From assembly GCA_016839705.1 (NCBI GenBank), contig JAEOTR010000014.1, positions 1 through 64,000 on the forward strand: a DNA stretch of 64,000 bases, written 5' to 3'. The notes beneath the pieces were generated by a model. The model saw only the letters and a list, made by a program, of their open reading frames with translations, was not told the DNA's origin and ran no database searches. Of the stretch, positions 23,879 through 28,230 are shown piece after piece; within the stretch, counting starts at the first letter, position 1, and each line of letters starts with the position of its first letter. This stretch comes from Promethearchaeota archaeon (GTDB lineage Archaea; Asgardarchaeota; Lokiarchaeia; Sigyniarchaeales; SOKP01). The position numbers and the translations under genes were made by a program.

Positions 23879-24165
23879 TATTCTTTAGAGTTTGGTATTT
23901 TCTTACTTATTTTTAAATGATTGTTTACATTTCTGAAATTAATTAAATTTTAATAGGAATATTATCTTTGGAATCTAGGAAATGTCCAAATCTAATATGA
24001 GCAACTTATATAAAACTCTCTTTTAATATAAGAATAGGTACCCAAACCAGTAAATTACATAAAAAGATTCATGCAGAAAGGAGATTTAAGCAAAAATCAA
24101 ATAATGAAAGAACTGGAGGATACTTGTTTATAAATTCAAAAAGAAAAAACTCTGACGAAAATAAT

Positions 24166-24639
24166 ATGCAGGAGATTAAAAAGAAGTGTGATTTTTTAAA
24201 GCACTTATTTGACATAATAAATGATGGCGCTACGGGATTTGAACTAGCTTATGAAGTTGAGAAAAATCTAGAAGTTAAAAGTTTAATTTATGATGGCATT
24301 TTGTTTTACAACACATTTATAGAAATTGGGAGTAAGAAATTTCTGGATGTTCCTGATAAAGTTAAAAAAGATTATCAATCTTTTAAAACAATTGAAGATA
24401 CTGAAAAATTTATATTTATGGTATGGTTAAAAGATACAATCACCACACTGGAGAAAAAAATCCAACCTAAAGAGGATTATGCGAAATTTGTTGAAGCTAA
24501 AAAGGCCCAAGAGATAAGGGAAGCTATGGAGAAATTACACAAAAGACTGACTCATTGTAAAAATTGTGGGGCACAGATTCGAAGTAAAAAACAATTATTA
24601 TGTGAGGGATGTGGAGAAATCCTTATGGAAGGTATTTAA
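24166..24639 (+). CDS. Hypothetical protein with C-terminal zinc ribbon
   Basis: CKNCG...CEGCG after a coiled-coil-like helix. ATG 24166 (track start TTG 24124). Confidence 0.65.
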   Translation: MQEIKKKCDFLKHLFDIINDGATGFELAYEVEKNLEVKSLIYDGILFYNTFIEIGSKKFLDVPDKVKKDYQSFKTIEDTEKFIFMVWLKDTITTLEKKIQPKEDYAKFVEAKKAQEIREAMEKLHKRLTHCKNCGAQIRSKKQLLCEGCGEILMEGI

Positions 24640-24734
24640 CAAAAACAAAGATCGAGCTCCTTAGTTAAAAACTTCACTCTTCCTAAGTAAATACTAATAA
24701 AAAAAGAAAAAAATATTATTTAAATTTAAACATT

Positions 24735-26204
24735 TTAACTTTCAATCTTGGTACCACACCATTTACAGAACTTTTCTGTTTCTGTGAGTTTACTCCCACA
24801 CAATGAACAGGTTTTTGCGCTTGCGGGGGTTATTACATCAGAGCTTACAGTCTGTCTCCCTTCCACTTTCCCCCCACATTTAGGGCAAAATTTTGAATCA
24901 CTATGCAGTGTAGCACCGCAACGAATACAATTAAGTTCTGTGATTGGAGCTTTCTTGTATGGGGATCCTTTAGTCCCTTTAGCAGGCGTTTTCTCAGGTT
25001 CTTTAAGCTTGAGCTTTTTTTGACCTCTTCTTGAGACAACTGCTGCGATTATTACAATTGCAACGACTCCTAGGATAATCCAAAAGATCCATTGTATATC
25101 AATCCATCTCTCAGTAGAAGATTTCCCCGTATCATAACTCACATCGAAAGTAATGGTTGTAGATTCCTCGGGTGAATTCATTGGATCAAAATAAATGAAG
25201 AAATACCAATTTCCTGCTTTAGGAACATAAAAAGTTTCACCTAATATATCTTTTGTTTCATTTCTATGAAAATCCATTAGAGTGAAATCTACAACTCCAC
25301 TTTCTGTGAAATTTACGGTAAAGTCAACATCAACGCTTGTCCCCCCATCGTTATACCAAACCACATAATAGTCATTTGCACTCGGTATTGCTAGAGATCC
25401 TGTGTCGCCATTAGTATTTGGCTCATCTACATAAAAAGATGGTGAACCTCCTTGATCCCATAAATAAAGATCATTACCATCTCCAATGAAGAAATCTACT
25501 AGTCCAGATGTGTTAAAGACATAATCTATTGATGATCCGGGTCTTAAGAAAAACCAAAGGTATTCATATTCATTATTAAGGAGATTAATTGAACCGATTT
25601 CGGTGGTAAGGAAAGATCTCGTGGGTACAGATTCAAATGGACGATCATCAATACCAAAGTTTATATCAGCTATAGAAGATTGGATTCTATTAATCGTGAT
25701 GCCATTATCTTTTTCAATATATTCAAATTCATACCAGAATTCATTATAATACAATGTCTCTGTGGAACGATATGACACATTACCATTCACATCTGCATCG
25801 CTAAACGGGAACAAGAATGCAACACCTGCTATTGGAAGCAAAATTAGAGCTAAGGTGATTACAAGTACAACACCTCCACCAACATATACCGGAGAATAAT
25901 ACCAAGGACGATAATAATGTCCTGCCCACCATGGATTATACCACCAACGGTAATACCAAGGTCGATGGTACCACCACCAGGGTCTATAATATCTACGATG
26001 TGGTCTATATCCTCTGTGAGAATAAGGTCCGGATCTTGATGTTACTCGAGAAGCACCCGTCCTCCCAAATGGTCTCCCACTTGGTCTACCATAACCACTC
26101 CGACCTCCGAATCCACCACCGCGAAAACCACCACCTCTGAATCCACCTCCACCACCGCGAAAACCACCACCGCCTCGGAATCCACCTCCACCTCCTCTAG
26201 GCAT
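24735..26204 (-). CDS. Two-TM protein: RGG/aromatic low-complexity N-terminus, APD1-4-like extracytoplasmic beta domain, C-terminal double zinc ribbon
   Basis: FRGG repeats, W/Y-rich tract, two hydrophobic segments, four CxxCG motifs. Confidence 0.7.
   Translation of the reverse strand: MPRGGGGGFRGGGGFRGGGGGFRGGGFRGGGFGGRSGYGRPSGRPFGRTGASRVTSRSGPYSHRGYRPHRRYYRPWWWYHRPWYYRWWYNPWWAGHYYRPWYYSPVYVGGGVVLVITLALILLPIAGVAFLFPFSDADVNGNVSYRSTETLYYNEFWYEFEYIEKDNGITINRIQSSIADINFGIDDRPFESVPTRSFLTTEIGSINLLNNEYEYLWFFLRPGSSIDYVFNTSGLVDFFIGDGNDLYLWDQGGSPSFYVDEPNTNGDTGSLAIPSANDYYVVWYNDGGTSVDVDFTVNFTESGVVDFTLMDFHRNETKDILGETFYVPKAGNWYFFIYFDPMNSPEESTTITFDVSYDTGKSSTERWIDIQWIFWIILGVVAIVIIAAVVSRRGQKKLKLKEPEKTPAKGTKGSPYKKAPITELNCIRCGATLHSDSKFCPKCGGKVEGRQTVSSDVITPASAKTCSLCGSKLTETEKFCKWCGTKIES
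26095..26201 (-). repeat. Coding low-complexity GGT/GGA repeat encoding GGG(G)FR units
   Basis: Repeated CCACC units on the + strand; GC-rich patch in AT-rich DNA. Confidence 0.8.
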
Positions 26205-26206
26205 TT

Positions 26207-27217
26207 TTAACTTGCCACCTCTTTCTTCATAGATTCAACAGTTTCCTTTTCCCTAAAGATGTAATCTCTATTTATGGCTAGTAATACTAGAATCATTGAT
26301 AAAATTGACAATGTTAATCCAATGCTATCAATTGTTATAATAGGTTTAGGGATTGCAGTTGCAAAAGCAATACCAAACAAAATCCACTCAAAAACCATAA
26401 AGAACACAAAAAGTCCAGGAATTATTGTCCTCACAATTCTACCCGTTTGCAAGTTTCTGGTGTCAGAAAAGCTCACGTATATTATGGAGAACAAACAGAT
26501 TATTCCAAAAATCAATAAGAATATGCTAAATATCGCTATTACAATCCATATTGGATGGAGTCTGCCTATTTCAAGAAAAGGTGCTATTATACTTAAACTC
26601 CTAGCTTCAAACAAATAGTAGGTTACTTTTCCACCTCCAGTCAAAATAGACCCCAACAAGCTCCAAAGATCATCTGAACTCCCGGAAAAAAAGCCATATA
26701 CCCCAGTAAGTGGTAGAATAATACCCAAAGTAAATGCTAGTATAACACATACGCTAGCAAACCAAAATTCGGCAACCCTTGTATTTCTTACGGGAATTAA
26801 TCCAATTTCATCTACGTTCTGATCAGGTATGTAACTCCAACAATCTTGGATGGTACTTACTCCAATCAATTTTCCATTCTCAACTACAGGAACTACATTT
26901 ACATTTAAATCACGCATACGTGTAAATGCTTCCACAACTGGCGTGTTTAGGGATACAGGTGTAATATTATACATTGTACTAAGAATTTTCTCAGATTTTG
27001 AGTCTTTTCCTTCTGCTACAATATTCTGTACGATATCAATATCTGCGATAACACCAAGAACTTTTTGTGCCTCTCCTTCAACTACAACCAAATCTGGAAC
27101 CCCTAGTTCTTTCATTTTTTTAGCTGCTTCTTGAATTGTTGCTTTTGAGTCAATTATGCCATATTCATCATCGATGACAAGATCTTTTACAAAATATTCT
27201 TTTTTAGTTAATGTCAT
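26207..27217 (-). CDS. CBS-pair protein with four C-terminal TM helices
   Basis: Tandem CBS motifs (LVVV..VLGVI..DI; VPVVENGKLIGV) followed by hydrophobic helices; 2-nt gap to the downstream gene. Confidence 0.8.
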   Translation of the reverse strand: MTLTKKEYFVKDLVIDDEYGIIDSKATIQEAAKKMKELGVPDLVVVEGEAQKVLGVIADIDIVQNIVAEGKDSKSEKILSTMYNITPVSLNTPVVEAFTRMRDLNVNVVPVVENGKLIGVSTIQDCWSYIPDQNVDEIGLIPVRNTRVAEFWFASVCVILAFTLGIILPLTGVYGFFSGSSDDLWSLLGSILTGGGKVTYYLFEARSLSIIAPFLEIGRLHPIWIVIAIFSIFLLIFGIICLFSIIYVSFSDTRNLQTGRIVRTIIPGLFVFFMVFEWILFGIAFATAIPKPIITIDSIGLTLSILSMILVLLAINRDYIFREKETVESMKKEVAS

Positions 27218-27438
27218 AAATTATGCATCTCATTTTTCTGTTAAATTAATTTTCTATGAAAAATACGCAATATAAAATATTTAAATGTTTTTGTTAAACG
27301 GAATTACTCATAGCAAAAATTAGTCTCTTAAAAATTGGTCTATATATCCTTTAAATTACCTAATCTATAATTTTGTTATTCTTACTCAAAATTTTACAAA
27401 TCGACAATAGAATATTAGATTATCATAATAGTAAATAA

Positions 27439-28230
27439 TTAAAAGAAATCTATTAGGGAACTAAAGGATTCAATTATTATTGATAGTTTTATTTGAGATT
27501 TACTAGGTTTATAAAACCTTCCTTTCCCTGTTTTTACTAATATCCCTTGAATCCCCGCGTTTATAGCACCATGAATGTCAGATTCAGGATCATCCCCAAT
27601 TACAAGTACCTCATCTGTATTAAGATCAATTCTTTTTAATGCTTGCAAGAAGTACTCTTTTGAAGGTTTGCCAAAAATCTTTGGATCTACATTTGCCGCA
27701 TAAGCAATCATCTGTACAAATGATCCCGTATCTATTACAGGTTCTCCATCCCGATCAAGAAAATACTTATTACCCTGTGTTCCAAGAAGTTGAGCACCTT
27801 TAATCACATATCTAAACGCTTTATTTAAACGATTCACATCCCAATTATCATGAAAGTCACCTATAATTACAAATTCAGGAATTTCAGAACCACTTACCAT
27901 CGGAAAATCTTGAAATTCCTTTTCAACTTCGCTAGTAGTAACAAAAAATGATTTTTTTGATGGGTTTTCAGATAAGAATTCTTTCAAAGCAATTATTGGT
28001 GTAAATATTTCATCCTCATTGATATAAAATCCATATTCCTTCAAAATTTTTAGAATAGTACGAGGAGATTTACTATCGGTATTCGTGAAAAACAGAAATT
28101 TTAATCCTTTTTTTCTGAGTTTTGAAAGCGTCGCAATAGCTCCTGGAATCGGCGCCCCTTTATAGAAAAGAGTACCATCTATATCGGTAAGAATTCCCTT
28201 AATATTACTAAAATTTTTGTTTTCGCCCAT
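27439..28230 (-). CDS. HAD subfamily IIA hydrolase (LHPP/HDHD2/NagD-like)
   Basis: DIDGTL, FTN, GKP, IGDD.ESDI.GA, VKTGK. Confidence 0.9.
   Translation of the reverse strand: MGENKNFSNIKGILTDIDGTLFYKGAPIPGAIATLSKLRKKGLKFLFFTNTDSKSPRTILKILKEYGFYINEDEIFTPIIALKEFLSENPSKKSFFVTTSEVEKEFQDFPMVSGSEIPEFVIIGDFHDNWDVNRLNKAFRYVIKGAQLLGTQGNKYFLDRDGEPVIDTGSFVQMIAYAANVDPKIFGKPSKEYFLQALKRIDLNTDEVLVIGDDPESDIHGAINAGIQGILVKTGKGRFYKPSKSQIKLSIIIESFSSLIDFF

Follow-up and report, generated by a model that had tools for sequence, protein, structure and literature searches.

Boxes of repeated Arg-Gly-Gly (RGG) in glycine/arginine-rich (GAR) regions are a hallmark of eukaryotic RNA-binding, condensate-forming proteins; to our knowledge, they are generally missing from archaeal proteins such as fibrillarin. 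Charge carried by Arg alone, together with Phe, Tyr and Trp, is the composition that drives Arg-aromatic association and RNA binding. RGG domains have been found to phase-separate and Gly-rich domains to bind RNA (PMC6065366, PMC11239674), with the Gly-rich domain of GRP7 as a comparison case for RNA binding (PMC11239674). A second relevant system is the APD1-4 family, whose members are orphan transmembrane (TM) RING ligases in the endomembrane system of plants (PMC13210498). Here we analyse the gene of a 489-residue protein in a 64,000-nucleotide stretch of DNA (the window; positions 1 to 64,000 of contig JAEOTR010000014.1) from a Promethearchaeota archaeon of the Lokiarchaeia. The gene lies at 24735..26204 on the - strand, on which all features of the protein and its upstream partner are given, and its stop codon is at 24735-24737. 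What is new here, as read from the sequence, is that an archaeal membrane protein has a GAR-type RGG box in its cytoplasmic tail. No paper on an Asgard RGG box or on Asgard APD homologues was found in the open-access literature, in searches that also covered RGG motifs in archaeal membrane proteins, PF16040/DUF4792 and Asgard phase separation.

With the GAR/RGG regions of eukaryotes (fibrillarin, nucleolin, GAR1 and the LAF-1 RGG domain) the tail shares clusters of (F)RGG(G) spaced by 2-4 residues, a Gly/Arg/Phe composition, charge supplied by Arg only and predicted disorder. It differs from them in standing at the extreme N-terminus of an archaeal polytopic membrane protein, where a Trp/Tyr-rich tract follows it, and in being the sole RGG box of its proteome. 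The tail protein also possesses no RRM, methyltransferase or helicase domain.

Composition, translation and conservation of the tail

The RGG box occupies residues 1-35 (26100..26204) and consists of 22 Gly (63%), 6 Arg and 5 Phe, among other residues. Its five RGG, four of them as FRGG as the earlier note on this DNA had read them, begin at residues 3, 10, 16, 23 and 28 and are separated by 4, 3, 4 and 2 residues. In the RGG/RG-motif literature a tri-RGG is defined as three RGG spaced by 0-4 residues. The box, with at least three RGG at gaps of 4 residues or fewer, has this arrangement, and it is also a disordered Gly-rich segment of the kind that characterises GAR regions, with a predicted local distance difference test score (pLDDT) of 24-39 in AlphaFold2. 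A basic linker of Ser, Gly, Arg and Pro comes next (residues 36-70; 25995..26099) and holds the motif GxPFGRTGxxR (residues 43-53; 26046-26078), which is invariant in an alignment of 40 sequences. The third part is a W/Y/R/P tract at residues 71-107 (25884..25994), in which a unit resembling (Y)YRPW(Y)Y recurs three to four times and which has 9 Trp and 11 Tyr besides 5 Arg and 5 Pro. Its end, PWYYSPVY, adjoins TM1 (about residues 108-132; 25809..25883; AlphaFold2 helix 105-131). The tract thus runs directly into TM1 and a hydrophobic N-terminal signal is absent, just as had been noticed before. Of the span that the earlier note gave the tail, 25885-26204, the end holds and the first position moves by one, the exact span being 25884-26204.

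The whole tail contains 19 Arg but lacks Lys, Asp and Glu altogether (net charge +19), in an organism whose proteome contains 8.3% Lys, 3.8% Arg and 12.7% Asp plus Glu. A six-frame scan of the entire 3.36-Mb genome returned the tail as the only open reading frame (ORF) with at least three RGG within 40 residues; a comparable W/Y tract occurs in just one further ORF. The RGG/aromatic tail is more than chance. No Rfam family matched either strand of 24000-28000, short ORFs on the + strand across the repeat are unsupported, and the codon-level selection pattern agrees with the - frame.

We then considered whether the tail is translated at all. If the true start were downstream, the repeat would be untranslated or neutral slippage DNA, as might be suspected from the roughly one quarter of database homologues that are called from Val codons in PVYVGGG just before TM1, and from the odd composition of the region (48% GC against 31.4% for the genome). 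The start sites of 44 loci, 30 of the same genus and family and 14 from two further families, speak against this. An ATG, GTG or TTG stands directly before PRGG in 43 of them, in open frame, and the remaining locus reads N there. Nearly all 44 carry GAGGTG, GGAGG or a near variant 7-12 nucleotides upstream of the start; in the window this Shine-Dalgarno-like hexamer is GAGGTG at 26216..26221, 11 nucleotides upstream of the ATG and within the end of the upstream gene. Synonymous change is plentiful while the amino acids are kept (synonymous divergence, dS, up to more than 1; nonsynonymous divergence, dN, 0.01-0.09), and six-frame genome searches returned no complete match lacking the tail. Since both start codon and Shine-Dalgarno sequence are conserved, the tail is translated, and a start downstream of the repeat, which the earlier note had named as a way in which its reading could fail, was not found. 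We rule out a wrong start or untranslated repeat on the grounds of conserved start, Shine-Dalgarno sequence and codon-level selection, and leave such an artefact next to no probability. The finding thus corrects database gene calls that drop the tail and bear misleading names. The tail-less database homologues are about 365-398 residues long and mostly automatic calls (e.g. P0002, P0012, P0018 and P0022-P0024). JGI names for homologues ('FliL', 'L40E', 'L37E' and 'RPABC4/Spt4') are unsupported and reflect the TM and zinc-ribbon parts alone; otherwise databases name the family just 'zinc ribbon domain-containing protein'.

The earlier note had made its reading depend on conservation of the tail in orthologues, and the tail is kept in every complete orthologue when genomes are read in six frames. 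Full-length matches beginning at residue 1-2 were found in 57 of 68 genomes of the own family, in all seven from another family within that order and in 19 of 21 from a third; in the rest of the phylum the zinc ribbon alone matches. A scan of species-representative genomes returned 119 loci, nearly all labelled Promethearchaeota or Promethearchaeia, including Promethearchaeum sp. As the family is present in Promethearchaeum-type genomes, cultured strains may allow it to be studied by proteomics and imaging. Depositor labels of relatives 55-75% identical (loci L056-L135) conflict, naming Promethearchaeota, Hodarchaeota, Odinarchaeota, Thorarchaeota and Hermodarchaeota, and are therefore unsuited for inferring the family's range.

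In the alignment of 40 sequences, which reaches down to about 40% identity, the fraction of majority residues was 0.85 for the RGG box, 0.72 for the linker and 0.76 for the aromatic tract, compared with 0.62 for the outer domain. M1, P2, R3, P82, W83, R99, P105 and Y107 are invariant, as are G43, P45, F46, G47, R48, T49, G50 and R53 of the motif, and FPFS(D/N)A is conserved right after TM1. The ratio dN/dS was 0.02-0.10 for the tail versus 0.06-0.31 for the outer domain, and was lower for the tail in 13 of 14 close pairs. Among 123 family members the tail measures 100-124 residues and contains 16-24 Arg, a median of 0 Lys, no Glu, a median of 0 Asp (maximum 1), 2-9 RGG (median 5), 4-10 Trp and 10-20 Tyr. 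By these sequence comparisons, no other part of the protein is as well conserved as the tail, and purifying selection acts more strongly on it than on the folded outer domain.

When residues 36-110 of the tail were used as a query, 172 of 181 candidates belonged to this family; all of the matches listed possess the family's length and zinc-ribbon layout, and essentially no other architecture with this segment was found. In the ESM Atlas the tail scored 0.76 and the outer domain 0.85, with nothing above lead level; the outer domain matched unnamed archaeal clusters, one of them with 19% PF01105.

Topology and the membrane interface

Beyond TM1 the protein continues with an outer (extracellular) all-beta domain (residues 133-365; 25110..25808), TM2 (about residues 366-391; 25032..25109; AlphaFold2 helix 363-399) and a cytoplasmic C-terminus (24738..25031). 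The last comprises a Lys-rich linker (residues 392-423) and a double zinc ribbon (residues 424-489) whose eight Cys are arranged as four CxxC. Pfam gave the double zinc ribbon (PF12773) as its sole match on the 489-residue protein, and an NCBIfam scan of the same protein gave noise-level matches only. Modelling with AlphaFold2 and the family alignment left residues 1-105 disordered (pLDDT 24-53) and produced a confident all-beta fold for residues 142-358 (pLDDT about 90).

The predicted topology is N-in/C-in, with the middle domain outside and both ends cytoplasmic. This prediction is drawn from four features: net charge is +19 in the tail, -29 in the middle domain and +8 in the segment past TM2; all four N-x-S/T sequons fall in the middle domain, that at N231 recurring in 33 of 40 sequences; all eight Cys of the protein lie in the zinc ribbons; and in distant relatives a signal peptide replaces tail and TM1 and is followed by the same domain, a TM helix and a zinc ribbon. 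The earlier assignment of the tail to the cytoplasm agrees with the charge, the glycosylation sequons and the homology to signal-peptide relatives. A tail outside the cell was rejected on the basis of charge, sequons, cytosolic zinc ribbons and those same relatives.

The earlier note had also suggested a membrane-interface anchor for the aromatic tract. Its Wimley-White interfacial energies sum to -19.6 kcal/mol, and its best 35-mer ranks 4th among 2882 ORFs, the others listed looking like TM segments. Despite this strong interfacial energy, the tract is punctuated by Pro and contains 5 Arg. PW[YF]xSP beside TM1 is kept in relatives without the Gly-rich part. Both the energy and the retention of this TM1-adjacent stretch in distant relatives support the suggestion, and by this modelling the tract is most likely a membrane-interface anchor that extends TM1. 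Indolicidin and tritrpticin are secreted animal antimicrobial peptides, rich in Trp, Arg and Pro, that act at such interfaces. The tract resembles them in being short, non-helical, Pro-punctuated and rich in Trp and Arg (with a PWWW string) and in its predicted interface preference; it differs in being intracellular and fixed beside a TM helix, and no homology connects them.

Could the tail serve topology and anchoring alone? The Arg excess would then fix TM1 in its N-in orientation, the W/Y tract would stabilise the end of the helix, and the RGG box would have no ligand. The strong positive-inside pattern and the large interfacial energy of the tract are as expected from such a role, and the most distant relatives with two TMs keep the TM1-adjacent stretch alone. 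However, a few Arg would suffice for topology, and in relatives a plain signal peptide achieves the same. Moreover, no segment is more conserved than the RGG box, which lies 70-105 residues away from the membrane and experiences strong purifying selection. We therefore judge a purely topogenic role to be improbable.

TM1 itself is an uncleaved signal-anchor or, possibly, a cleaved internal signal. In the latter case cleavage after FPFS(D/N)A would release tail and TM1 as a small membrane peptide and leave a mature type I protein. A conserved small-x-small site (S-D/N-A) does lie directly past TM1, and cleavable-looking signal peptides occupy the same place in relatives, but a conserved n-region of 105 residues would be very unusual and the role of the tail would be left unexplained. 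Such a release strikes us as very improbable.

The outer domain and its APD1-4 and GOLD relatives

The core of the outer domain, residues about 198-303 (25296-25613), was located by structure superposition. It superposes on the GOLD domain of p24beta1 (5azw_B) with a Z score of 13.1 and a root-mean-square deviation of 1.4 A over 87 residues. The next structural matches were p24gamma2, TMED1, SPF and p24delta1 at Z 11-12, and generic beta-sandwiches followed at Z 9-10. The core therefore has the GOLD fold seen in p24/TMED proteins. PF01105 (GOLD) did not match the 489-residue protein, which also lacks the p24/TMED architecture, made up of a signal peptide, a coiled coil, one TM and a short sorting tail. 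With p24/TMED and SEC14-like GOLD proteins it thus shares the superposable core, and its distant relatives show weak PF01105 matches; the differences are an identity of 10-17%, the embedding of the core in a larger sandwich and the lack of both a coiled coil and a COPI/COPII tail. Four archaeal proteins (P0210, P0213, P0225 and P0228, one labelled Thorarchaeota) do show a p24-like layout of signal peptide, GOLD-like domain (weak PF01105), TM and C-terminal zinc ribbon, and are related to the outer domain at E values of 1e-8 to 1e-11.

Among 1.84 billion representative sequences, a profile built from the outer domain returned 156 matches. Among the 92 distant ones, 25 contained PF16040 (APD1-4_N; best 5e-13), 23 PF16041 (APD1-4_M) and 13 PF01105. 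Two amoebozoan transcripts (Pellita and Cochliopodium) and a protein of Heimdallarchaeote LC_2 were among the members that passed the Pfam cut-offs. Aligned by hhalign with ten such sequences, the Loki domain gave a probability of 98.5% and an E value of 2.2e-15 over 180 columns. In the opposite direction, a profile of Heimdall and eukaryote-type sequences retrieved exactly this gene from its own genome (E 1e-26). Against PF16040 the protein itself scores 13 bits (E 0.087; cut-off 27), and orthologues in a sister genus score 28.1-28.4 bits. A word-indexed search with an amoebozoan homologue for named plant APDs returned the query itself only.

The layout is shared as well. Like APD1-4 (PF16040 plus PF16041), the Loki protein has an N-terminal tail, a TM helix, a lumenal or outer beta domain, a second TM helix and a cytosolic zinc-binding C-terminus, so that two TMs flank the domain and both termini are predicted to be cytosolic; the amoebozoan and Heimdall members possess Gly-rich basic N-tails too. 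It differs in its longer outer domain, in a double zinc ribbon (PF12773) replacing the RING finger, of which Pfam detected none, and in a tail with Phe, Arg, Trp and Tyr where the eukaryote-type (amoebozoan) members that were read have His and Ser. Profile comparison thus points to a divergent homologue of the APD1-4 family; because it scores 13 bits on PF16040 and lacks a RING finger, we do not treat it as a canonical member.

RING-like elements occur elsewhere in the family. One Loki family has an extra C-terminal Cys/His-rich finger of about 70 residues (L032:4000-4180 (+); also L033-L037, L044 and L045), which reaches E 0.0017 with zf-RING_4 and E 0.007 with zf-UDP, both under cut-off, and comes closer to the TM-RING layout of APD. 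Heimdall relatives show a near-threshold RING-H2 (zf-RING_2, 25 bits against a cut-off of 27.3). The genome also encodes three E2-like UQ_con (PF00179) proteins above the Pfam cut-off (C87:53103-53573, C53:21994-22407 and C30:35412-35666), and therefore the organism has parts of ubiquitin-type conjugation.

These data bear on a different role for the tail, that of a specific docking or regulatory region in an E3-like or ubiquitin-like membrane pathway. The MPR start and GxPFGRTGxxR would bind a defined partner (the CBS-domain protein encoded upstream, a substrate or an E2-like enzyme). Lacking Lys, the tail would escape modification by its own pathway, and the RGG box would serve as a flexible spacer. 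The relationship of the outer domain to transmembrane RING ligases of the APD1-4 family, the RING-like fingers of relatives and the three E2-like proteins are in line with it. So is the invariance of the motif, together with the complete lack of Lys in the tail of a protein that uses Lys freely past TM2, in a proteome where Lys is twice as common as Arg. On the other hand, the protein itself carries a pair of zinc ribbons in sequence where a RING would be expected; Heimdall and amoebozoan tails lack the motif; the locus contains neither an E2 nor a ubiquitin gene, the E2-like genes being on other contigs; and a spacer would not need 2-9 RGG kept under a dN/dS of 0.02-0.1. Taken together, we regard the docking role as possible but rather unlikely.

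Tails of relatives, a proposed role and the gene neighbourhood

Tails were compared among 37 representative relatives with an N-terminal tail and at least two TMs. In 24 of them the tail is Gly-rich, free of Lys, Asp and Glu, and contains Arg and/or His plus aromatics; Heimdall LC_2 and the two amoebozoan transcripts belong to these. Among the 24, Heimdall forms start with MRRGGG (one FRSGG/FRGGG is present) or with MRRGRG and go on into a stretch rich in GY; a Lokiarchaeia relative has H/Y-GGGG and GYG repeats; and amoebozoan tails start with MPRHGGG or MGKHSGG, with repeats of GGRSH or HGGHH after that. In one Loki sub-clade the tails are of the ordinary charged kind, and PW[YF]xSP is retained beside TM1. 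A second paralogue of the Loki order, also among the 24, starts with MPRSSRGGG and lacks the CBS neighbour. This paralogue (L048:931-2172 (-)) is shorter, passes the PF16040 cut-off and has a Ser/Arg/Gly tail and a single zinc ribbon; its upstream neighbour is group II intron maturase-like.

Judging from these alignments, the TM1-adjacent segment is the deepest feature and a Gly-rich, cationic, aromatic composition recurs widely. Specific to the Loki family are the CBS partner, the PFGRTG motif and the FRGG box in its exact form. Arg and Phe of the box are partly replaced by His, Tyr and Ser in Heimdall, other Loki and amoebozoan relatives, with the Gly-richness and the absence of Lys, Asp and Glu staying. 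To judge by sequence, this replacement is easier to reconcile with a multivalent tail that works through its composition than with a module for specific RNA binding.

We propose that the tail acts as a membrane-proximal anchor with a projecting multivalent sticker, which would cluster the complex or hold polyanions such as RNA. The W/Y/R/P tract would lie in the cytoplasmic membrane interface in the manner of Trp/Arg/Pro-rich peptides, GxPFGRTGxxR would probably dock a partner, and the distal GAR-type RGG box would project into the cytoplasm as the multivalent sticker. Contacts between Arg and aromatics, and binding of polyanions, of which RNA is the obvious one, would then cluster the protein and its CBS partner at the membrane, or recruit ligands. 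Interface insertion, self-association, binding of RNA or another polyanion and the link to a ubiquitin-like pathway are properties that we infer. RNA binding and condensate formation by the tail are plausible by analogy. A functional parallel is offered by p180/RRBP1 and LRRC59, proteins of the endoplasmic reticulum membrane whose basic cytosolic tails, made of Lys-rich repeats or coiled coils, bind ribosomes or mRNA. What they have in common with the Loki protein is a membrane anchor joined to a long, highly basic, disordered cytosolic region by which RNA could be retained at a membrane, and there is no sequence relationship.

Several observations weigh against this proposal. Low-complexity regions inflate alignment identity, and the Gly-rich tails of distant relatives could be convergent. 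As Arg is often His, Ser or Tyr in relatives, Arg-specific RNA binding is not a function shared by the tails. No RNA-related gene was found linked to the locus. Finally, the invariant GxPFGRTGxxR and the exact MPR N-terminus, as conserved sequence, point to specific protein recognition and not to composition alone. We accordingly give the anchor-and-sticker role something short of an even chance. If the tail does bind RNA or self-associate, it would provide an Asgard case of membrane-tethered low-complexity-domain function, and a handle on the role of APD-family tails, of the GOLD-like domain and of the zinc fingers.

A broader and doubtful extension, which we think unlikely to hold, is that the ancestral APD-type family of Asgard archaea and eukaryotes carried a Gly/Arg(His)/aromatic tail before eukaryogenesis, forming membrane-tethered assemblies or holding RNA. 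If this were true, RGG sticker-and-spacer biology, thought to be eukaryotic, would already be operating in Lokiarchaeia, where it would be linked with a GOLD-like domain that faces outward and with an energy sensor of the CBS-domain type.

The CBS partner is encoded directly upstream in all 44 of the loci used for the start-site comparison. In the window its gene (26207..27217) specifies a 336-residue membrane protein, with a Bateman pair of CBS domains and four TM helices, and its stop codon (26207-26209) ends 2 nucleotides before the ATG at 26204; this stop is likewise a few nucleotides ahead of the start in 29 loci of the same family. The CBS gene and the tail-protein gene look like one transcription unit. 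An oligo-T run (14 of 15 positions T; 24699..24713), about 22 nucleotides past the stop of the tail gene, is likely the archaeal terminator of this two-gene unit, as far as its sequence indicates. About 52-68 nucleotides upstream of the CBS gene start is an AT-rich TATA-like element (27269..27285), in an intergenic region 220 nucleotides long with a GC content near 20%; the evidence for it is weak, because AT-rich DNA readily yields matches of this kind.

Only the CBS pair of the partner was matched, its TM part finding no Pfam family and no solved fold, nor could a transporter fold be recognised in it. That membrane part consists of four helices and a small beta element at residues 177-213, with W224 and W278 invariant within helices and R317 and F321 invariant just past the last helix. 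On the other side of the module, a convergent gene for a 171-residue protein (24124-24639 (+)) ends 95 nucleotides from the stop of the tail gene. Its product has a C-terminal CxxC...CxxC zinc ribbon (a weak DZR match), and the gene adjoins the module in 6 of 29 other loci of the same family.

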